Source: Candidatus Saccharimonadota bacterium
GTDB taxonomy: Bacteria; Patescibacteriota; Saccharimonadia; Saccharimonadales; Saccharimonadaceae
Direction: 5' to 3'
DNA: 64,000 nt
Assembly: GCA_017437945.1 (NCBI GenBank)
Contig: JAFRWP010000002.1
Coordinates: 1,272-65,271, forward strand
Below, one piece after another: positions 50,513 to 60,230 of the stretch (positions are counted from its first letter, which is position 1; each line of letters opens with the position of its first letter). Under the pieces are notes generated by a model. That model was not told the origin of the DNA. It ran no database searches and saw only the letters and a program-made list of their open reading frames with translations. A program made the position numbers and the translations under genes.

Positions 50513-52520
50513 ACTGGGAGTTATATAGATCGGCGTAGAAGCCGTTTTTAGCCATCAATTCTTTATGATTGCCCGACTCGACGATATTGCCCTCATTCAT
50601 GACTAAAATAAGATCAGCGTTCTTAATTGTGGATAAGCGGTGCGCAATAATAAATGATGTGCGACCTTCCATTAACTTATCCATTGCTTTTTGGACCAGT
50701 TCCTCGGTACGCGTATCGACGTTGGATGTTGCCTCGTCCAGAATTAGGAATGGCGCATCCTCAATCATGCCGCGCGCGATTGTAATCAGCTGCTTTTGGC
50801 CAGCCGAAATTGAATCGCTCTCAGCTATATCCGTATTTAAGCCCTTTGGCAGGGTTTTAATAAAGTGACTGAGGCCCACAGTATCACAAACCTTCATTAT
50901 TTCCGCATCCGTAATTGGGCCGTTATTGTAGATGATATTATCGCGCATTGTGCCACTAAACATCCACGTGTCTTGTAATACCATCGTAAATAAGGAATGG
51001 ATTTCTTCGCGCGTCATAGTTTTCGTAGAGACACCATCGATGCGGATGTCGCCAGAATTAATGTCGTAGAATTTCATCAGCAGGTTCACCATCGTGGTTT
51101 TTCCGGCGCCGGTTGGTCCAACTATTGCGATCTTTTGACCGGCCTTCGCTTTGGCGGAGAAATCCTTGATGATAGTCTTACCATCGTCGTATCCAAAGCG
51201 TACGTGATCAAACTCGATATCTCCACGGATTGTTTTCTTATTAATGTGGGCAGTTAAGCCTTTCTCACTTGGCATTTCCTCTTCGTCGAGGAATTCAAAA
51301 ACTCGTTCACTCGATGCTGCCGCTGGCTGTAGGCCTCCGACAGCCTGAGCAATTCGCGAAAGCGGAGAAGAGAACAGGCGTGCGTATAAAATGAACGCCA
51401 CAATCACGCCGAAACTAATCGCGCCATTCATCGTAAGAAGCGCCCCAACTACACAAACTGCGACATAGCCGAAATTACCTATAAACGCCATGAATGGGTG
51501 CATTAAACCGGACAAGAACTGGCTACGCTGATTGGCTGTATGAATCTTTTTATTTATGACATCAAACTTACGGTCAGCCGTCTCTTTGCCGCCATATACT
51601 TTTACGACGGCAATACCAGAATAAACCTCTTCGATATGGGAATTCATTTTTCCGAGTTCTACTTGGCGATCGGTAAAGTATTTTTGAGATTTTTTGAGAA
51701 TAATTGCCACGAAAATGAAACCAAATAAGCTTGAGCCAATTGCAACAACTGCTAACATCCAGTTTGTCACGAGCATCATTACGGCTGCGCCGAGCAATAA
51801 TGACCCTTCACCGATGATTGTCCCGAATGAATTATCGAGACTACTTGCGACGGAGTCGACATCATTTGTGATGCGTGAAAGCACATCGCCGATCTGGTGC
51901 TTATCGAAATATTTCAGTGGCAATCGATTTATCTTTCGAGAAATGCGATTGCGCAAATTGCGCGCAAATCCCGCCGTAACGCGCGCCATAATAAAACCTT
52001 CAATATATTCCATAATTGCAGAGAGAAGATATATCGCTGCCATCATAAAGGCTAAATTGCGAATCAGTACATAATTCATTTCTGGTGCAATTAGTTTTTG
52101 AATCGAAGTAGGCAACTTACCAATTTCGGCATAGATATCTTTAGCTTTTGATTCATCAACTGTACCATTCTCGGATAATTGCAGTTGTATTCTCTGCATA
52201 GCCTCAATGAACAGCTTCTTGTCTTCGGCGCTAACTTTTTCGCCGTCAATGATGCTATTCTCAGTTGGTTCTTGCAGAATGATGGTTGATACTCTTGCGA
52301 TTTTTTCGCGGTCAAGCATTAATCCTGAGGATATTTCGTCCGTGATATCAGCAAGTCTCTCTGGCGCAATTACGGATAAGATCGAGCCACCGAGTGACAT
52401 TACTATCGCGATTGCGATTAAAATATAAAAGCCCTTCATCTCGCGTAGCATACGTCGAATTGCTGCGCCAAAATTTTTTGCTTTTTCGTCGCCTTTGCTA
52501 TGTCTACCACCGTTAAACAT
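50502..52520 (-). CDS. ABC exporter permease/ATPase fusion (type IV exporter half-transporter) with a ~95-aa insertion between TM1 and TM2
   Basis: Walker A GPTGAGKTT, signature ISAGQKQ and Walker B FLILDEATS are present, with a 6-TM N-terminal domain. Confidence 0.9.
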   Translation of the reverse strand: MFNGGRHSKGDEKAKNFGAAIRRMLREMKGFYILIAIAIVMSLGGSILSVIAPERLADITDEISSGLMLDREKIARVSTIILQEPTENSIIDGEKVSAEDKKLFIEAMQRIQLQLSENGTVDESKAKDIYAEIGKLPTSIQKLIAPEMNYVLIRNLAFMMAAIYLLSAIMEYIEGFIMARVTAGFARNLRNRISRKINRLPLKYFDKHQIGDVLSRITNDVDSVASSLDNSFGTIIGEGSLLLGAAVMMLVTNWMLAVVAIGSSLFGFIFVAIILKKSQKYFTDRQVELGKMNSHIEEVYSGIAVVKVYGGKETADRKFDVINKKIHTANQRSQFLSGLMHPFMAFIGNFGYVAVCVVGALLTMNGAISFGVIVAFILYARLFSSPLSRIAQAVGGLQPAAASSERVFEFLDEEEMPSEKGLTAHINKKTIRGDIEFDHVRFGYDDGKTIIKDFSAKAKAGQKIAIVGPTGAGKTTMVNLLMKFYDINSGDIRIDGVSTKTMTREEIHSLFTMVLQDTWMFSGTMRDNIIYNNGPITDAEIMKVCDTVGLSHFIKTLPKGLNTDIAESDSISAGQKQLITIARGMIEDAPFLILDEATSNVDTRTEELVQKAMDKLMEGRTSFIIAHRLSTIKNADLILVMNEGNIVESGNHKELMAKNGFYADLYNSQFAL

Positions 52521-54270
52521 TGAGTTCCTCCTTTGTTAACTGTGACAAAGCTATTTCTTTATATACTTCACAATTTTTCATCAATTCTTTATGTGTGCCC
52601 ATGCCAACGCATACGCCTTTATCAAGTACCAAGATTTTATCGGCATGCATAATGGTGCCAATACGTTGCGCAACAATTAGACTCGTAGCATCCTTAGTAT
52701 ATTCACGTAAAGCCTGGCGCAAGGCGGCATCGGTTTTATAATCCAAAGCCGAGAACGAATCGTCGAATATATAGATTTCTGGATCGCGCGCAATTGCGCG
52801 GGCAATAGCGAGGCGCTGTTTTTGTCCACCGGATATATTTGTGCCAGATTGTGCGATTGGCGAGTTGTACTGTTTTTCGAGCTTTTCTACGAAGTGCTTA
52901 GCTTGAGCAACCTGGGCAGCTTTTTGAATATGACGCTCAGACGGTTTGCCCTTGCCGCTATCGCCGTAAGAGATATTGCTCGCTACCGTACCATTAAAGA
53001 TAACTGCTTTTTGTGGCACGTAACCGAGTTTTCGATGCAGGGCTTTCTGCTTATAATCCTTCACGTTTATTCCGTCAACAAATATTGCTCCATCCGTAAC
53101 ATCATAAAAACGCGGTACCAAGTTAATTAATGTTGATTTGCCAGAGCCGGTTGAACCAATAAACGCTACGGTCTCGCCGCGTTCAGCCTTGAATGAAATA
53201 TTCTTTAATAGATATTCTTCTGCATCCGGGTATTTAAATGAAACGTTGCGGAATTCAACCGTACCGGTTTCAGCGGTCTCCTCGTCGAAACTACCGTCCT
53301 TAATCGTAATCTCTTCGTCTAAGACTTCATTAATACGCTCCGCTGATACCTGAGCGCGTGGAATAATCATGAAAATCATAGCCACCATTAAGAAACTAAA
53401 GATTACGTGCATAGCGTAGGACGAGAACACAACCATGTCGCTGAAGAGATTTAATTTATCGGACATAATGGAATTGCCGATTAAATATGCGCCAAGTACA
53501 TAAATAACTAAAGTGATACCATTCATAACCAGATACATCATTGGCGACATTACGCTAAGAACTCGGTCGACGAAACGCGTAATATCGGCCAGTTCAGTAT
53601 TGCTTTTGTCGAATTTGTGCTCTTGATACTTTTCGGCGTTGAATGCATGCACGACACGGATGCCCGTGAGATTCTCTCGTGAAACGCCGTTCAATTTATC
53701 GGTTAATTTCTGGATTACCTTAAACCTAGGAATCACAATCATCATAATCGTGATAACGGTCGCCAACAAAATTACGACCGCAACACCGGTGGCAGTACTC
53801 CATTCCCAGCTTTTACCCTGAATTTTTACTATTGCCCAGATTGCGCTAAGTGGCGCACGAATAAGCATATTGGCCCCCATCGTAATCGCCATGCGTGCCT
53901 GGGTAATATCATTAGTGGTACGTGTGATAAGGGAAGCGGTTGAGAATTTTTTAATCTCATTCATGCTGAGCTGTTCAACTTTATCAAATATCTTTTTACG
54001 AACGATAAAAGAGAAGTCGGCCCCAATATGCGAAACGAACCAACCGGCGATGATTACTGAAATCAAACTACCGAGCGCGCAAAGCAACATCATGCCACCA
54101 TTTTGAAGTATTTCGCCCATCTCGCTACCCTCAGTCTGCACTAGTTTAGTAATTGCGGACATATACTCTGGCATCTTCAGTTCTAGGCCAACTTGTCCAG
54201 CGATGAAAAACACCGCGAGGGCCATAAAAAGATAATCTTTTTTATTTAAGGTTTTGAGAAGTTTAAACAT
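52513..54270 (-). CDS. ABC exporter permease/ATPase fusion, partner half-transporter
   Basis: Walker A GSTGSGKST, signature ISGGQKQR and Walker B IYIFDDSFS are present. It overlaps the downstream partner gene by 8 nt. Confidence 0.9.
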   Translation of the reverse strand: MFKLLKTLNKKDYLFMALAVFFIAGQVGLELKMPEYMSAITKLVQTEGSEMGEILQNGGMMLLCALGSLISVIIAGWFVSHIGADFSFIVRKKIFDKVEQLSMNEIKKFSTASLITRTTNDITQARMAITMGANMLIRAPLSAIWAIVKIQGKSWEWSTATGVAVVILLATVITIMMIVIPRFKVIQKLTDKLNGVSRENLTGIRVVHAFNAEKYQEHKFDKSNTELADITRFVDRVLSVMSPMMYLVMNGITLVIYVLGAYLIGNSIMSDKLNLFSDMVVFSSYAMHVIFSFLMVAMIFMIIPRAQVSAERINEVLDEEITIKDGSFDEETAETGTVEFRNVSFKYPDAEEYLLKNISFKAERGETVAFIGSTGSGKSTLINLVPRFYDVTDGAIFVDGINVKDYKQKALHRKLGYVPQKAVIFNGTVASNISYGDSGKGKPSERHIQKAAQVAQAKHFVEKLEKQYNSPIAQSGTNISGGQKQRLAIARAIARDPEIYIFDDSFSALDYKTDAALRQALREYTKDATSLIVAQRIGTIMHADKILVLDKGVCVGMGTHKELMKNCEVYKEIALSQLTKEELNV

Positions 54271-54327
54271 AATTAATTATTTAAGTATAACAATTATTGC
54301 GGTCTTTTTCTAGTAGGGAACAGCGAT

Positions 54328-54742
54328 AAAAAAATGCCCCGGTCCGCTAATGGAACCGAGGCTGTATAAGGCTCCGCTGCAACACGTTGGGTTGCCGCAG
54401 CGGAGCCAGAGAAAGAGAGTAGTGGTAGTAAACGTGTGAGTTTGATCCTGATATTGATTCGGTAACTAGACGCTGGCTTTGCTCGCAGTGGGTTGAATCG
54501 AGTTTGAGTCTTTGGACGTTCTAGGTAGCCTTCCATCTACCCGGAGGTGCACTTGTGAACTGAACAAGAACTGAACTGACTAGACTGTGAACAGTGACTA
54601 ATGATTTACTATGTCTGCTATTGTATAAAACATCATTGCCGAGCTACCACACTCTCTTTACTCTCAAAGAACATAAGGCTGCGGGGCGGGCTGATTGCCA
54701 CTTTCGTGGTCGATCGCGCATATAGCACTCCGCAGCACGACT
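54328..54742 (-). ncRNA. candidate structured non-coding RNA (~415 nt), family unknown
   Basis: On the minus strand there is a promoter TTGCAT (54771-54776)-17-TACAAT (54748-54753). A 10-bp GC-rich hairpin (54336-54362) followed by U7 acts as terminator. A 19-bp long-range helix pairs 54644-54665 with 54408-54428. An 11-bp hairpin pairs 54397-54407 with 54370-54380, and there is a CCAC-GAAA-GUGG tetraloop hairpin. No ORF in the region has an SD. Confidence 0.45.
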
Positions 54743-54818
54743 CACTCATTGTATATCATATTAATTGTCTATGCAAGCATAAGAAATAACGTCGCATGCT
54801 ATTATATATATAACTGTC

Positions 54819-56995: not shown

Positions 56996-57071
56996 TGGCA
57001 GGGGCGGCAAGACTCGAACTCGCGACACCTGGTTTTGGAGACCAGTGCTCTACCAACTGAGCTACGCCCCT
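56996..57071 (-). tRNA. tRNA-Trp (anticodon CCA), 76 nt with encoded 3' CCA
   Basis: The minus-strand sequence AGGGGCGTAGCTCAGTTGGTAGAGCACTGGTCTCCAAAACCAGGTGTCGCGAGTTCGAGTCTTGCCGCCCCTGCCA folds as a cloverleaf. The acceptor stem has 7 bp and the anticodon loop is CTCCAAA. Confidence 0.95.
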
Positions 57072-58129: not shown

Positions 58130-59077
58130 ATGCACATGCATGGGTTGGGCGTAAGCACCGAAAAAATAAAAAACCAAATTGATTTCTGCGACTATCTTTC
58201 GGTTGCTCAGATTTTTTTGAAAGATAATTTTTTACTTTCTCGCCCTCTTAGTTTTTCTGATATAAAACCGCGTCTTCTTGGTCACTGGGGCTCATGCCCG
58301 GGCATTAATATTGCCTACGCCAACATCAAAGCGCGTTTTCCGGTAGCTGATTTTATCCTCGGACCAGGCCATGGATTCCCGGCCCTTCAGGCTAACCTTT
58401 TCTATGACGGCACACTTTTGGAGCATTATCCAGATGCAACTCCGAATCTTCATGGTATCGAATATATCTGTAAGAATTTCTCTTGGCCATATGGTTTTCC
58501 ATCCCATTCCAATCCGGCAACCCCAGGCGTAATAGCCGAGGGCGGTGAGCTTGGCTATTCTTTGGCCAGCGCGTATGGCGTTGCGCTTGGTCGTCCAGAG
58601 CGCACAGTAGCTGTCTTGATTGGTGACGGCGAGCTTGAGACCGCGACAGCGCTAGCCAGCTTGAATCTCAATAGACTACTTAATTCCGAAAACAACGGTT
58701 GGGTTATTCCGATTTTGCACCTAAATGGTTACAAAATTTCTGCACCAACAATCTACGGTCGTAGCAGTGAGCGCGAGCTTCTTCAGATGTTTCGCGGCTT
58801 TGGCTTTAATCCGATTATTGTCGACGGTACCCGCACGGATGAATTCCAGCTTGCACTAGCAAATATTGATCGAAATAGTTTCATTATTATGAAAACGCCA
58901 AAAGGATATGGCTGTCCGCCAGAGCTTGATGGAATTAAGCTTGAAGGCAACTGCGCGTCACATCAAGTTCCACTGCCGAAGGCAAAAACCGACGAGAAAC
59001 AGCTAAAGATGCTAGAAGAATGGTTAAAATCATATAACTTTAAGGAGCTCTACGATGAATTTACCAAACGCGGTTGA
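58130..59077 (+). CDS. xfp: xylulose-5-P/fructose-6-P phosphoketolase, N-terminal (XFP_N, TPP-binding) segment
   Basis: KPRLLGHWGSCPG, GPGHGFPA, EGGELGYSL, IGDGELETA and ILHLNGYKI match Xfp blocks. The frame ends at 59077, inside the natural inter-domain linker. Confidence 0.8.
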   Translation: MHMHGLGVSTEKIKNQIDFCDYLSVAQIFLKDNFLLSRPLSFSDIKPRLLGHWGSCPGINIAYANIKARFPVADFILGPGHGFPALQANLFYDGTLLEHYPDATPNLHGIEYICKNFSWPYGFPSHSNPATPGVIAEGGELGYSLASAYGVALGRPERTVAVLIGDGELETATALASLNLNRLLNSENNGWVIPILHLNGYKISAPTIYGRSSERELLQMFRGFGFNPIIVDGTRTDEFQLALANIDRNSFIIMKTPKGYGCPPELDGIKLEGNCASHQVPLPKAKTDEKQLKMLEEWLKSYNFKELYDEFTKRG

Positions 59078-60230
59078 AAATCCAGGTTCAGAAAAATACT
59101 CCCTCGCTAAAGTATTCGGCGAAGCTCTCCGCAATGAAATGCGTGCGCATGATGATTTTTATTTCTTTTCGCCAGACGAAACAACTTCTAATCGGCTAGC
59201 AGCGGTTTATGAGACAACGGACCGGGCTTGGATACGTAAAACTGAACCGTGGGATAAAAATCTTGCTCCAGATGGCCGCGTCGTCGAATTACTTTCCGAA
59301 AATACCCTGTTTGCCGTAATGGCTGCGCATATTTTGAGCGGCGGGCGCGGTTGTATGACCTCGTACGAATCGTTTTTGCCCGTGGTCTCATCGCAATTTG
59401 ACCAGCACCTTAAATTCCTCAAGCAGAGCAAGGAAGTCGAGTGGCGCCCGCGCGTCAATGCCCTGAATATACTTTCTACTTCTTGTTGGGAGCGCCAGGA
59501 TCATAATGGTTATACGCATCAGAATCCTTCAATTATTTCCAGCTTGCTGGCAAAACCATCAAATTTGGCGAACTGTTTATTCCCAGTCGATGATGTAGCT
59601 GCAGCTGCCGCGTGGGAATTTATGACCCGCACAAAAGATGTTGTAAATCTTACAACGTTTAATAAGATTGAACAGCCGCGCTGGATCGACATTAACCATG
59701 CTAGATTCCAACTTACGAATGGTGGTGCCTCTATCTTTGGCTTCGCTTCTGATGATAACCCAGAAGTAGTCGTAGCCGCTGCCGGCGATATTCAAACGAA
59801 TGAAGCTATCGAGGCCATTCGTTTAGCTAAGCAGCTCGCTCCAGATCCCCGTATTCGTTTCGTGGGCATTGCCGCCCTCTCTTATGGCGCAATCGGCACC
59901 ACGGAAAATAAACTCAAACCAAGCGACTTTAACGATTATTTCACGACCGACAAACCGATCATTATTAATTTCCATGGTTATGCTGAAACTATGCGCGCAA
60001 TTATGTATCATTATGCTGACCCCCGCCGCGTCGATGTTCATGGTTACGACGATCAAGGCTCGACCACGACGCCACTAGACGAGCTCGCACGCAACCGCTG
60101 CTCCCGCTATGACCTTGCAAACAATATCCTTGAGCGCGCCGGCCGCTACGACTTTGCTCATTTCTTTGAAGACAAATTGCTTGAAAATGCCCACTATGCC
60201 AACATGTATGGCGTAGACAATAATCTCTAG
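59055..60230 (+). CDS. xfp: phosphoketolase, central + C-terminal segment (separate frame)
   Basis: FSPDETTSNRL, SYESFLPVV, QDHNGYTHQNP and HGYDDQGSTTTP match Xfp blocks. The ATG is preceded by AAGGAG with 7-nt spacing, and the gene overlaps the previous frame by 23 nt. Confidence 0.8.
   Translation: MNLPNAVENPGSEKYSLAKVFGEALRNEMRAHDDFYFFSPDETTSNRLAAVYETTDRAWIRKTEPWDKNLAPDGRVVELLSENTLFAVMAAHILSGGRGCMTSYESFLPVVSSQFDQHLKFLKQSKEVEWRPRVNALNILSTSCWERQDHNGYTHQNPSIISSLLAKPSNLANCLFPVDDVAAAAAWEFMTRTKDVVNLTTFNKIEQPRWIDINHARFQLTNGGASIFGFASDDNPEVVVAAAGDIQTNEAIEAIRLAKQLAPDPRIRFVGIAALSYGAIGTTENKLKPSDFNDYFTTDKPIIINFHGYAETMRAIMYHYADPRRVDVHGYDDQGSTTTPLDELARNRCSRYDLANNILERAGRYDFAHFFEDKLLENAHYANMYGVDNNL

Follow-up and report, generated by a model that had tools for sequence, protein, structure and literature searches.

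A probable structured RNA gene of rumen and gut Saccharibacteria with the element order of a 16S rRNA leader and trailer

Results

Location and limits of the RNA gene

The window, the whole stretch of 64,000 nucleotides that was analysed, carries on its minus strand at 54328–54776 a structured non-coding RNA gene of about 415 nt, very probably transcribed separately, which belongs to a lineage of rumen and gut Saccharibacteria. It lies directly upstream of the genes of an ABC exporter and on the same strand. All the features that an earlier note had listed for this locus were located on the minus strand. Its view of a structured RNA gene that stands alone between a promoter and a terminator of its own, and without a credible open reading frame (ORF), holds; the description of the RNA as an orphan, and the proposals that it might be a leader of the ABC operon or a MITE, are not supported.

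The promoter consists of TTGCAT (54771–54776), a 17-nt spacer and TACAAT (54748–54753), as had been noted. The −35 region (54771–54783, minus strand) lies within a conserved block, CTTATGCTTGC (54773–54783), which in the form CTTATGCTTGC(A/G) is found at the equivalent position upstream of the homologous RNAs of three divergent groups (A, B and C), and a −10-like box occupies the equivalent position in all homologues. A generic promoter scan did not call it because TTGCAT agrees with TTGACA at only three of six positions. The promoter is nevertheless of the σ70 type and conserved; its sequence suggests that it is used, with transcription probably starting near 54741. At the other end, an intrinsic terminator (54328–54362, minus strand), found by a terminator scan and present in every homologue, pairs GCCTCGGTTC with GGACCGGGGC in a 10-bp stem with seven G-C pairs, closed by a 7-nt loop and followed by an A and seven U residues (AT7 in the DNA). 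Outside the RNA, a promoter scan located the promoter of the ABC operon, TAGAAA-17-TATACT with an extended TG (54284–54312, minus strand), which marks the boundary. The corresponding CTAGAAA...TATACT block precedes the ABC gene in RNA-bearing and RNA-free loci alike.

Fold and helices

The minimum free energy (MFE) of the fold is −139.1 kcal/mol, compared with −113.7 ± 5.6 kcal/mol for 100 dinucleotide shuffles, none of which was as good (z = −4.5). Members of groups A, B and C gave fold z-scores of −4.5, −3.6 and −4.4, respectively, with an architecture common to all. In the model, the RNA runs from a 5′ hairpin (P1) through a single-stranded boxA-like motif to a long interrupted helix (P2) that closes a variable domain, and then through a 3′ hairpin (P3) to the terminator.

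The helices proposed previously are all recovered. P1 (54678–54736, minus strand), present in both the MFE and the centroid structure, pairs GCUGCGG (54730–54736) with CCGCAGC (54678–54684), encloses a CCAC-GAAA-GUGG hairpin (54698–54709) and occupies a boxB-like position, directly upstream of the boxA-like motif. P2, likewise found in the MFE and centroid structures, joins a 5′ strand, GAGAGUAAAGAGAGUGUGGUAG (54644–54665, minus strand), to the closing or “trailer” strand, CUACCACUACUCUCUUUCUCU (54408–54428, minus strand), with 16 modelled pairs and internal loops over about 19–22 bp; its 22-mer is unique in the window even when three mismatches are allowed (0 matches expected). P3 (54370–54407, minus strand) is built from perfect 11-nt arms (54370–54380 and 54397–54407), which the fold extends to a 15-bp stem with a ACCCAACG loop, and carries insertions of 60–75 nt in locus L083 and in groups B and C. 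A CCUUAU hexamer follows both hairpins (54673–54678 and 54366–54371), and the one after P3 is conserved.

The central domain closed by P2 (54429–54643, minus strand; about 215 nt) varies strongly among members. In the window it contains, on the minus strand, GUUCA pentamer repeats (54556–54592), CCUCC (54543–54547), GCCAGCGU (54470–54477) and an invariant GUUACCGA (54459–54466). The enclosed domain measures 13–250 nt across members and is shrunk to a 13-nt loop in L084 and L037, and P1 is missing, and therefore dispensable, in L161–165. Both the central domain and P1 can thus be dispensed with in some members, and none of the possible “cargoes” is shared by all. Most group-A members have CCUCC, or something close to it, in the central domain, without its being invariant (UUCCUUC, UUCCUCU, or absent in L083), and ACCCAAC-type loops are found in P3 or the terminator. 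A search of the window for targets of (GUUCA)n and GUUACCGAAU gave nothing beyond chance. By eye, helices of the central domain covary (GAAAAA/UUUUUC versus AAUGU/ACAUU versus GGAUGU/ACGUCC, flanking GUGCC/GGCAC). A pseudoknot between the boxA region and a CCAAAG-like element of the central domain, attractive by eye, was discarded, its duplex energies being no better than those of shuffles.

Homologues and compensatory changes

About 20 homologous loci were found, so that the RNA is not the orphan that it had been taken for. Many independently assembled Saccharibacteria contigs carry the homologous RNA upstream of the ABC exporter orthologue, in the three sequence-divergent groups, and it was found here only in rumen and gut Saccharibacteria. 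The homologues were first spotted by eye and then through group-specific profiles; a search of the first 80 loci with the window RNA by nhmmer gave no match. Identity of the RNA between groups drops to noise (45–53%), compared with 74–80% for the adjacent gene. The RNA is missing from the ABC site in the orthologous loci of many close relatives, and in L037 a 744-aa ORF separates it from the ABC gene. The element has a single copy in the 64-kb window, where profile HMMs gave no other match, and its position is always syntenic. Viral contigs were also scanned: the 16 matches to GTTACCGA..CTACC..CTCTGGC are all unrelated coding sequence, 11 of them from one phage gene family, with about 20–40 expected by chance. 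In a search for an rrn operon of Saccharibacteria, the TM7-567 probe target had no match in viral contigs, and a generic 16S 5′ pattern picked out three contigs that lack the TM7-567 signature and whose leaders are Firmicutes-like and uninformative.

The helices are maintained by compensatory changes. In the group-A alignment of 11 sequences, only about seven of which are clearly distinct, 92.1% of cells are paired, compared with 39.5–51.3% when slid; the covariation score is 0.233 versus 0.151, and 20 pairs are changed on both sides versus 10.7 ± 2.1 in shuffles (0 of 500), controls that overstate independence because the sequences are related. Within P1, six of the seven pairs are changed on both sides across group A, including a double change from CG to UA between the close relatives L082 and L173. 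All five pairs of the middle segment of P2 and six of the nine inner pairs of P3 are likewise changed on both sides. P2 has unrelated sequences in different members, groups B and C included, with the pairing always kept (GAGAUGCCG/CGGCAUCUC, GAGGUGUCAUG/CAUGACACCUC and GGAUGAAGUGGAAUUG/CAAUCCACUUCAUCC). Homologues with compensatory base changes thus favour, among the options raised by the earlier note, a novel large structured non-coding RNA, and the loci very probably represent a real gene family of this kind.

Identities excluded

The RNA belongs to no curated Rfam family. Rfam 15 at the gathering score, run on the window and ten related loci, returned only tRNA and terminator-like noise, and relaxing the threshold to E ≤ 10 or E ≤ 0.05 for the region and for representatives of groups B, C and D added nothing else. 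The tmRNA, RNase P RNA, SRP RNA and 6S RNA had no match on either strand at the gathering score or at E ≤ 10. The earlier failure to see tmRNA ends is borne out by ARAGORN, which found no tmRNA and only tRNA-Trp, and the same applies to RNase P, SRP and T-box, for which there was nothing at the gathering score and, at E ≤ 10, no more than noise resembling terminators. A reading as 6S RNA was also dropped on anatomy, as was one as a divergent RNase P RNA, P4 strands being absent, and an essential housekeeping RNA is ruled out because L084 and L037 can do without the enclosed domain. No match to SSU, LSU or 5S rRNA was obtained in the window or related loci, nor any rRNA or other Rfam family inside the central domain. 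Since P2 encloses no rRNA, the locus cannot count as an rrn operon; it would either function as the flanks of one do or descend from them.

The 80-aa and 62-aa frames exist and, as had been judged, are not credible as genes, since they are not conserved. ORFs differ in frame, start and strand among members and run through the terminator, their similarities merely follow the conserved 3′ nucleotides, and a 1-nt indel between the near-identical L166 and L172 rearranges the set. A small protein-coding gene was accordingly rejected, no reading frame being conserved. A CsrA sponge (too few GGA sites), a retron (no reverse transcriptase) and a type I toxin-antitoxin system (no conserved peptide) were rejected as well. 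No description of the RNA was found in the literature.

Elements resembling those of a 16S rRNA leader

The single-stranded junction between P1 and P2 holds the boxA-like UGUUCUUUGAGA (54662–54673, minus strand), which agrees with the Escherichia coli rrn boxA UGCUCUUUAACA at nine of 12 positions and with GYTCTTTAANA at ten of 11. It is rare in the window and is predicted to be unpaired with a probability of 0.77, compared with an RNA mean of 0.38 (range 0.48–0.86). Groups A and B conserve the motif at this position; in group C the match is weaker, with a degenerate GUACCUAUAGA. For comparison, the boxA of Aquifex aeolicus is GGCUCCUUGGCA, and L013 unit 1 opens with GGCUCCUU, which coincides with the first eight nucleotides of that 12-mer. 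In boxA, NusB-S10 recognises a core of 8 nt. L013 unit 1 also shares a stretch of 13 nt, AGAUUGUCUGAUG, with the E. coli trailer (E = 0.024), which was set aside as not significant after 17 queries.

A few nucleotides further on, the 5′ strand of P2 contains GUGUGG (54647–54652), which is boxC-like when compared with the E. coli boxC UCUGUGUGGG, a consensus that may not extend beyond Enterobacteriaceae. A run of this type is confined to group A, in which GUGGUAGCU is invariant; none was seen in groups B and C.

Near the 3′ end of the central domain, CAGGAUCAAACUC (54438–54450, minus strand) is complementary at 13 of 13 positions to the 16S rRNA 5′ end GAGUUUGAUCCUG, a generic bacterial sequence and not the organism's own. 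When complementarity is summed over eight family members, the motif tops 4424 rRNA windows (90.5 versus 71.4 ± 2.9; z about 6.7). This ungapped scan was adopted after RNAduplex, which allows free internal loops, had given mixed z-scores against 16S nucleotides 1–45. Variants of CAGGAUCAAACUC among members are wobble-compatible, and group B shows only weak complementarity to 16S. In a 9-mer scan, a candidate second anti-16S site (GCCAGCGU, CCAGCGUUCA) was not conspicuous. CAGGAUCAAACUC would be the counterpart of the leader strand of helix h0 in pre-16S rRNA, and the E. coli leader has GUCAAACUU at the equivalent place. Only about 10–30 nt separate the h0-like strand from the closing strand of P2.

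For pre-16S rRNA, antitermination elements (boxB-boxA-boxC), a leader-trailer helix (hLT) and a helix h0 have been described (PMC10250234). The order of elements in the window, with the GUGUGG run as a possible boxC, is the one read in E. coli rrnA and set out in that paper: boxB, boxA, boxC within the leader-trailer helix, and the h0 strand.

Discussion

The family probably follows an rrn leader/trailer-type design. The explanation that we favour, with some confidence, is an independent non-coding RNA gene with the anatomy of a 16S leader plus trailer without rRNA, expressed as an rrn-type unit that is modified by Nus factors and processed by RNase III. Its nascent boxA, to judge from the sequence, would recruit NusB-S10 and other Nus factors, and the long untranslated transcript would then be made by an rrn-type, Rho-resistant elongation complex. 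The long helix may form like the leader-trailer helix of pre-rRNA and, by analogy, is a plausible RNase III substrate; the processed RNA would bear an unpartnered “h0” strand able to pair with nucleotides ~9–21 of the (pre-)16S rRNA. If this mechanism holds, the likeliest role would therefore be to act on, or titrate, the machinery of rRNA transcription, processing or assembly, and not to control the ABC exporter. That the RNA serves ribosome biogenesis, or titrates its machinery, is itself put forward tentatively.

The main rival, which we consider unlikely, is that a second rRNA operon has lost its rRNA genes by deletion and is decaying, the locus being what is left of it, a “solo” leader-trailer without a function of its own. 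The promoter, boxA and helices would then survive because the loss is recent or because a functional rrn operon restores them by gene conversion. The rrn-like anatomy fits a relic too. So do the absence or replacement of the element in many close relatives, the highly variable central domain with its almost complete deletion in L084 and L037, and the noise-level identity between groups next to a gene at 74–80%. However, three groups that have diverged beyond alignment still possess an intact promoter block, an intact terminator and all three helices, and double changes keep the pairs even between close relatives, with helices of the central domain covarying by eye as well. Saccharibacteria genomes measure only about 0.7–1 Mb, and streamlined genomes tend to delete useless DNA.

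A stronger form of the favoured, functional reading would make the RNA a trans-acting ribosome-biogenesis factor, a “leader in trans”. Its h0 strand would pair with 16S nucleotides ~9–21 while boxA and the helix engage Nus factors and RNase III, so as to set the timing of, or act as a check on, the folding of 16S helix 1 and the central pseudoknot. It would then be a bacterial functional analogue of the U3 snoRNA, or a growth-rate-coupled decoy that tunes rRNA synthesis in an ultra-small episymbiont. We regard this specific role as improbable.

It is also improbable that the gene encodes an ordinary trans-acting sRNA, which pairs with mRNAs through C- or pyrimidine-rich motifs (CCUCC, CCCAAC loops) and resembles rrn by coincidence. 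A free-standing gene with its own promoter and terminator, the rapid evolution of sequence on a conserved scaffold, the CCUCC or variant of most group-A members and the ACCCAAC-type loops would all suit such an RNA, but CCUCC is not invariant and the conserved single-stranded motifs had no complementary target in the window. Moreover, four rrn-leader features in the right order (a hairpin, boxA, an adjoining helix and a 13/13 16S complement before the closing strand) are unlikely by chance.

In the window, as in most homologous loci, the RNA immediately precedes the ABC genes on the same strand, a position that fits a cis-acting leader or attenuator that controls the exporter operon through conditional read-through of the terminator. 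This reading is largely refuted: the strong terminator is followed by the separate conserved ABC promoter, whether the RNA is present or not; many orthologous loci lack the RNA; the 744-aa gene of L037 intervenes. No alternative antiterminator pairing was seen on reading the aligned sequences by eye, and no riboswitch, T-box or other Rfam cis-regulatory element matched. A mobile repeat or a small protein-coding gene, to which the 21–22-nt imperfect inverted repeat flanking ~215 nt (the 21-bp terminal repeats of the supposed MITE) and ORFs of 62–80 aa had lent some colour, is refuted for practical purposes, since the repeat has one copy in the 64-kb window, always in synteny, with arms that change together between species as the strands of an RNA helix do and differ completely between groups, and since the ORFs shift in frame, start and strand and cross the terminator. 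The lack of a conserved frame, the single copy and the ABC operon's own promoter together therefore dispose of all three readings.

An rrn-like design in an independent gene bears on how its elements are viewed. boxA, the leader-trailer helix and helix h0 are usually treated as cis-acting parts of rRNA operons. A stand-alone gene that keeps all three without rRNA, under apparent selection, would raise the possibilities that such elements also help other long untranslated RNAs to be synthesised or kept stable, that they act in trans on ribosome assembly, or that they serve as decoys for Nus factors or RNase III. Saccharibacteria are reduced-genome episymbionts with few rRNA operons, and a conserved, presumably abundant, rRNA-linked RNA would be a useful entry point. 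For the cultivated Saccharibacterium TM7x, a preprint (10.1101/2022.03.25.485537) reports no small RNAs that have been validated. The RNAs described here are candidates for a new Rfam entry, and they explain the spurious “genes” of 95–123 aa, such as the ORFs of L001 and L012, that appear here in contigs derived from MAGs.

Comparison with known systems

ROOL, GOLLD, OLE and the raiA motif are large structured bacterial non-coding RNAs, all represented in Rfam. The present family resembles them in its length of hundreds of nucleotides, its covariation in several helices, its narrow phylogenetic range and its gut and rumen sources. Unlike them, it has a far less conserved primary sequence, modular domains that can be dispensed with and recognisable rrn-leader motifs, and it matched none of them even at E ≤ 10.

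In eukaryotes, the U3 snoRNA acts in trans by base-pairing with both the 5′ ETS and the beginning of the 18S rRNA, delaying formation of the central pseudoknot. The likeness is one of functional analogy only, in that a separately transcribed RNA bears a complement of the small-subunit rRNA 5′ end; homology and box C/D features are absent and trans pairing is hypothetical here, so that U3 offers a lead, not a classification.

boxA is also found outside rRNA operons, as in the 5′ UTR of suhB, where a boxA-like sequence likewise stands near the 5′ end of a non-rRNA transcript (PMC5725501). In the 5′ UTRs of γ-proteobacterial protein genes, boxA represses translation or promotes Rho termination, and the search for such sites did not consider non-coding RNAs (PMC5725501). 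In contrast to the suhB type, the whole transcript described here is non-coding and adds a leader-trailer-like helix and an anti-16S strand.

The closest counterpart is the leader and trailer of 16S rRNA in rrn operons. It differs in several respects from the present unit, which has no rRNA between the h0-like and closing strands, ends in its own intrinsic terminator after one further hairpin, and encloses a domain that can shrink to a 13-nt loop. The spacing from boxA to boxC is 9 nt here and 18–19 nt in Enterobacteriaceae, and P2, at about 19–22 bp, is shorter than the 25–40 bp of their leader-trailer helix (PMC10250234). The loss of P1 in L161–165 is compatible with the rrn model, because the role of rrn boxB is unclear and boxB is non-essential (PMC10250234). 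Both systems have a promoter, a hairpin, a boxA-type motif, a long helix, a structured leader, a complement of 16S nucleotides ~9–21 and a closing strand, in that succession. In both, the helix begins a few nucleotides after boxA and is kept by covariation rather than by sequence, and in group A it bears a boxC-like GUGUGG run in its 5′ strand, where the E. coli boxC also lies (PMC10250234). The earlier note, which had called the family not identifiable, overlooked this order of pre-16S leader and trailer elements, and it is the order that gives the locus a recognisable nearest relative.

The RNA gene and its fold

All the features listed in the earlier note were found again on the minus strand at 54328–54776. 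The predicted promoter consists of a -35 TTGCAT (54771–54776) and, after a 17-nt spacer, a -10 TACAAT (54748–54753), and a terminator scan returned an intrinsic terminator with a 10-bp G+C-rich stem and a U7 tail (54328–54362). The fold contains three named helices: the 5′ hairpin P1, a 7-bp helix (GCUGCGG/CCGCAGC, 54730–54736 with 54678–54684) around a CCAC-GAAA-GUGG hairpin; the long-range, interrupted helix P2 (54644–54665 with 54408–54428); and the 3′ hairpin P3, with perfect 11-nt arms, 15 bp when extended. CCUUAU is found 3′ of both the P1 and P3 hairpins. The minimum free energy (MFE) of the 421-nt RNA is -139.1 kcal/mol, against -113.7 ± 5.6 in dinucleotide shuffles (z -4.5), and every named helix is present in both the MFE and the centroid folds. 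The promoter is missing from the list of a generic promoter scan because TTGCAT agrees with TTGACA at only three of six positions; the case for this putative promoter rests on its conservation among homologous loci. No Rfam 15 family matched the RNA region at gathering score or E ≤ 10, and none matched the related sequences of groups B, C and D; ARAGORN found no tmRNA.

Related loci and covariation

The RNA had been described as an orphan, a claim that fails: units of the same build lie upstream of the ABC exporter orthologue in related loci (L numbers) on Saccharibacteria contigs. Plain nhmmer with the window RNA as query against the first 80 related loci returned no match; the homologues were first spotted by reading the gaps 5′ of the ABC orthologue and were sorted afterwards by profile searches, all of them coming from one Saccharibacteria clade reached via the ABC gene. 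Group A comprises the window (near-identical to L081), L082/L170/L173, L121, L083, L161–L165, L166/L172 and L171; group B, L003 (=L091/L174/L175), L007 (=L093), L084 and a truncated copy in L037; and group C, L085 (=L092), L001 and L012. The block CTTATGCTTGC(A/G) at -35, a -10 box and an intrinsic terminator are common to all units. RNA identity to the window is 58–70% within group A and falls to 45–53%, the noise level, between groups, whereas the adjacent ABC gene retains 74–80% in DNA; the primary sequence has therefore drifted fast while the design was kept.

Covariation was assessed on a MAFFT alignment of the 11 group-A sequences, on which RNAalifold returns P1, P2, P3 and the terminator, with compensatory change in 19 of its 49 pairs. 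The named structure (52 pairs) was also counted against 500 shuffles and against models with the 3′ partners slid by 1–3 columns. Standard pairs occupy 92.1% of cells, compared with 39.5–51.3% when slid. Both-side changes occur in 20 pairs (10.7 ± 2.1 in shuffles, 0/500) and the covariation score is 0.233 (0.151 ± 0.010, 0/500), although this shuffle control overstates independence because the sequences are few and related. The both-side changes affect 6/7 pairs of P1, 5/5 of mid P2 and 6/9 of inner P3, and a CG to UA double change in P1 separates the close relatives L082 and L173 (~15 differences). Across groups, P2 is built from unrelated sequences with pairing always kept: GAGAUGCCG/CGGCAUCUC in L003, GAGGUGUCAUG/CAUGACACCUC in L007, GAGACACUGCGG/CCACAGUAUCUC in L084 and GGAUGAAGUGGAAUUG/CAAUCCACUUCAUCC in L085; the folds of L003 (z -3.6) and L085 (z -4.4) show the same architecture. 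The slid control and these between-group replacements are the stronger covariation evidence. In the central domain, helices GUGCC/GGCAC with covarying flanks, GGCCCCCG/CGGGG-A-GCC and CAGCGU/ACGCUG were judged by eye. The locus very probably belongs to a real family of structured non-coding RNA genes.

In two further loci (L013:3229–4000 and L094:1730–2490) the ABC orthologue is 70% identical and is preceded by two non-coding units in tandem, each with its own promoter and terminator. Unit 1 contains GGCUCCUUUCAAUG, which begins with the same 8 nt as the A. aeolicus boxA 12-mer and precedes a long-range helix, GGAUAGUGGUC/GAUCACUAUCC; unit 2 carries GAUUCUUGGAG. These units may be distant paralogues or relatives of the family.

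A boxA-like motif and an anti-16S strand

The P1–P2 junction is the only 5′-side sequence conserved between groups, reading UGUUCUUUGAGA in the window, UGUUCUUUGGGA in L083, UGUACCUUGAGA in L121, AGCACCUUGGGA in L082, AGUUCAUUGGGA in L171, GGUUCCCUUUGAGA in L003, GGUUUCUUUCGAGG in L007 and UGUUCUCUUUUGAGA in L084. Judged by its sequence, this motif is like the boxA of rrn operons, which is UGCUCUUUAACA in E. coli rrnA, UGUUCUUUGAAAA in Firmicutes and GAACCUUGAAAA in cyanobacterial spacers. For gamma-proteobacteria, boxA has been searched for with the pattern GYTCTTTAANA (PMC5725501), and in the A. aeolicus boxA, GGCUCCUUGGCA, an 8-nt core is recognised by NusB-S10 (PMC3177189). The motif is predicted to be single-stranded (0.48–0.86, against RNA means of 0.35–0.44), and a degenerate family pattern occurs only three times in the window, counting both strands, the other two occurrences being within ORFs.

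Near the 3′ strand of P2, CAGGAUCAAACUC (54438–54450) is complementary at every position to GAGUUUGAUCCUG, the 5′ end of a generic bacterial 16S sequence. When the complementarity of eight family members was summed for each of the 4424 13-nt windows of E. coli 16S and 23S, with the generic 5′ end put in place of the 16S one, the 5′-end window ranked first (90.5; mean 71.4, sd 2.9) and the six best-ranked windows all overlapped this site. Variants of the strand are mostly wobble-compatible: L171 (UAGGGUCAAACUU) has three changes with the pair kept at each, L082 has CAGGAUUAAAC, and in L121 a single position is truly mismatched. In group C the strand is GAGCCAGGAUC, complementary to 16S nt 8–18, and group B has only GAGCCAGAAAC.

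Two other stretches recall 16S. GUUCA pentamer repeats, (C)AGUUCAGUUC..GUUCAGUUCA, lie at 54556–54592 of the window, with three perfect tandem copies in L082, L161 and L166 and a single copy, CCAGCGUUCA, in L083; this single copy is the complement of 16S nt ~27–36 (UGAACGCUGG). By sequence the repeats may represent a second anti-16S segment that has expanded, an idea to which a 9-mer scan gave no support. In L007:2185–2215 and L084:2165–2200 there are strings like the 16S 3′ end: in L007, CAUGACACCUCCUUUU makes up the 3′ strand of P2, and in group B the insertion in P3 contains GCUCUCACCUCCCAUCCUUUCC. Each of the two resembles the 16S 3′ terminus, GAUCACCUCCUUUCU; they might be left over from a deleted 16S or mimic an anti-Shine-Dalgarno sequence.

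Possible function and alternative readings

Promoter, terminator and fold are conserved across the family, which also carries a boxA-like motif, predicted to be unpaired, and a strand complementary to 16S. By analogy with rrn operons, boxA in the nascent RNA would nucleate a NusB-S10/NusA/NusG complex that would guard the long untranslated transcript against Rho. P2 (~19–22 bp) would form as the leader–trailer helix does and be a plausible RNase III substrate, and the released or full-length RNA would expose a strand able to pair with 16S, in the part later needed for helix 1 and the central pseudoknot. Such a mechanism leads us to favour an RNA that would interact with, or titrate, the machinery of rRNA transcription, processing or assembly; a role in ribosome biogenesis or as a decoy is nevertheless proposed only tentatively. 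In the main rival reading, which we consider unlikely, the locus would be what is left of a second rrn operon and would have no function; gene conversion might have kept it close to the true leader. A relic would fit the patchy distribution of the RNA and the fact that some of its domains are dispensable. Against it, promoter, terminator and compensated helices are intact in three groups that can no longer be aligned.

A leader of the ABC operon, as the earlier note had also suggested, was rejected. The minus-strand order is RNA, ABC-A (52513–54270), ABC-B and a 241-aa protein, with a divergently transcribed 166-aa membrane-protein gene upstream of the RNA. A separate promoter (TAGAAA-17-TATACT, extended TG) lies between the RNA terminator and the ABC start codon, and the block CTAGAAA...TATACT is found 5′ of the ABC gene in loci with and without the RNA; moreover, many orthologous ABC loci carry something else at the site, and in L037 a 744-aa ORF separates the RNA from the ABC gene. 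A MITE was rejected since the P2 22-mer arm occurs once in the window (three mismatches allowed), the site is always syntenic and the arms covary. A protein gene is dismissed because the ORFs (25–107 aa, several frames, both strands) have no conserved start, run through the terminator, show similarities that merely follow conserved 3′ nucleotides, and are reshuffled by a 1-nt indel between the near-identical L166 and L172. ORFs of 123 aa (L001:3605–3976) and 95 aa (L012:3626–3913) wholly within the group-C RNA are almost certainly spurious.

The 585-aa ABC exporter subunit downstream of the RNA matches proteins from rumen and gut MAGs of Candidatus Saccharibacteria at 82–100% identity, which places the window in a Saccharibacterium (TM7, Patescibacteria). 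Some loci lacking the RNA (L005:3514–4000, L006:1311–1782, L009, L010, L011, L088, L089, L002:3030–3430) have at the same site a small gene of ~45–60 aa that has a terminator of its own and a strong Shine-Dalgarno sequence, and whose product (for example MKKRYIVIGVVAAVAALLYAIGFILADEDSYDEDYPEHE) has a single hydrophobic helix and an acidic tail; in others a giant gene for a Cna_B-domain protein lies directly against the ABC promoter. What lies upstream of the exporter thus differs between loci, and the site is a variable hotspot. Group-B loci have a different ABC promoter, TGTTATAAT (L003:3870–3960, L007:2345–2430, L084:2365–2450), and a conserved ~90-nt 5′ UTR composed of GCUGAA, a hairpin with compensatory changes (CGGCCAUGAGCCG / UAACCGCAAUAGGUUA / CAGCUUCCAAGAGCUG) and AUGUACUGUUGGGGGAUCGGGAAAUUUUAUUUAGCAAAG. 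This UTR, for which Rfam returned no match, is a cis-regulatory candidate. A tRNA-Trp (CCA anticodon; 56996–57071, minus strand), ~2.2 kb upstream of the RNA gene, is the sole Rfam or ARAGORN match in the 64-kb window. At 58130–60230, two successive ORFs of 315 and 391 aa with a 23-nt overlap jointly resemble a single phosphoketolase, a reading that draws on the Pfam family XFP_N in the neighbouring gene in L174; the gene may be split or frameshifted here, or the assembly may be wrong.

Comparison with rrn operons

A literature search found no description of such an RNA, and a TM7x transcriptome preprint lists no validated small RNAs in TM7x (10.1101/2022.03.25.485537). In rrn operons the promoter is followed by the boxB hairpin, boxA, boxC, more leader helices, the h0 strand, 16S and the trailer strand; boxC lies within the 5′ strand of the long leader–trailer helix, and the h0 leader strand pairs with 16S nt 7–17 (PMC10250234). 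Compared with E. coli rrnA, the window RNA has P1, the boxA-like motif and the P2 5′ strand with GUGUGG in matching order, continuing 5′ to 3′ with a ~190-nt structured domain, CAGGAUCAAACUC, ten nucleotides and the P2 3′ strand. Unlike rrn operons, it holds no rRNA inside, according to Rfam, and in L084 and L037 the loop closed by P2 is just 13 nt, which makes the locus a 16S-less leader/trailer cassette whose conserved content is the scaffold itself and not a cargo. An rrn-type design is probable. The building blocks (boxA, leader–trailer helix and h0 strand) are already well known. As far as can be told, a conserved, free-standing transcription unit in which they persist with no rRNA present is new, and it is a candidate for a new RNA family.
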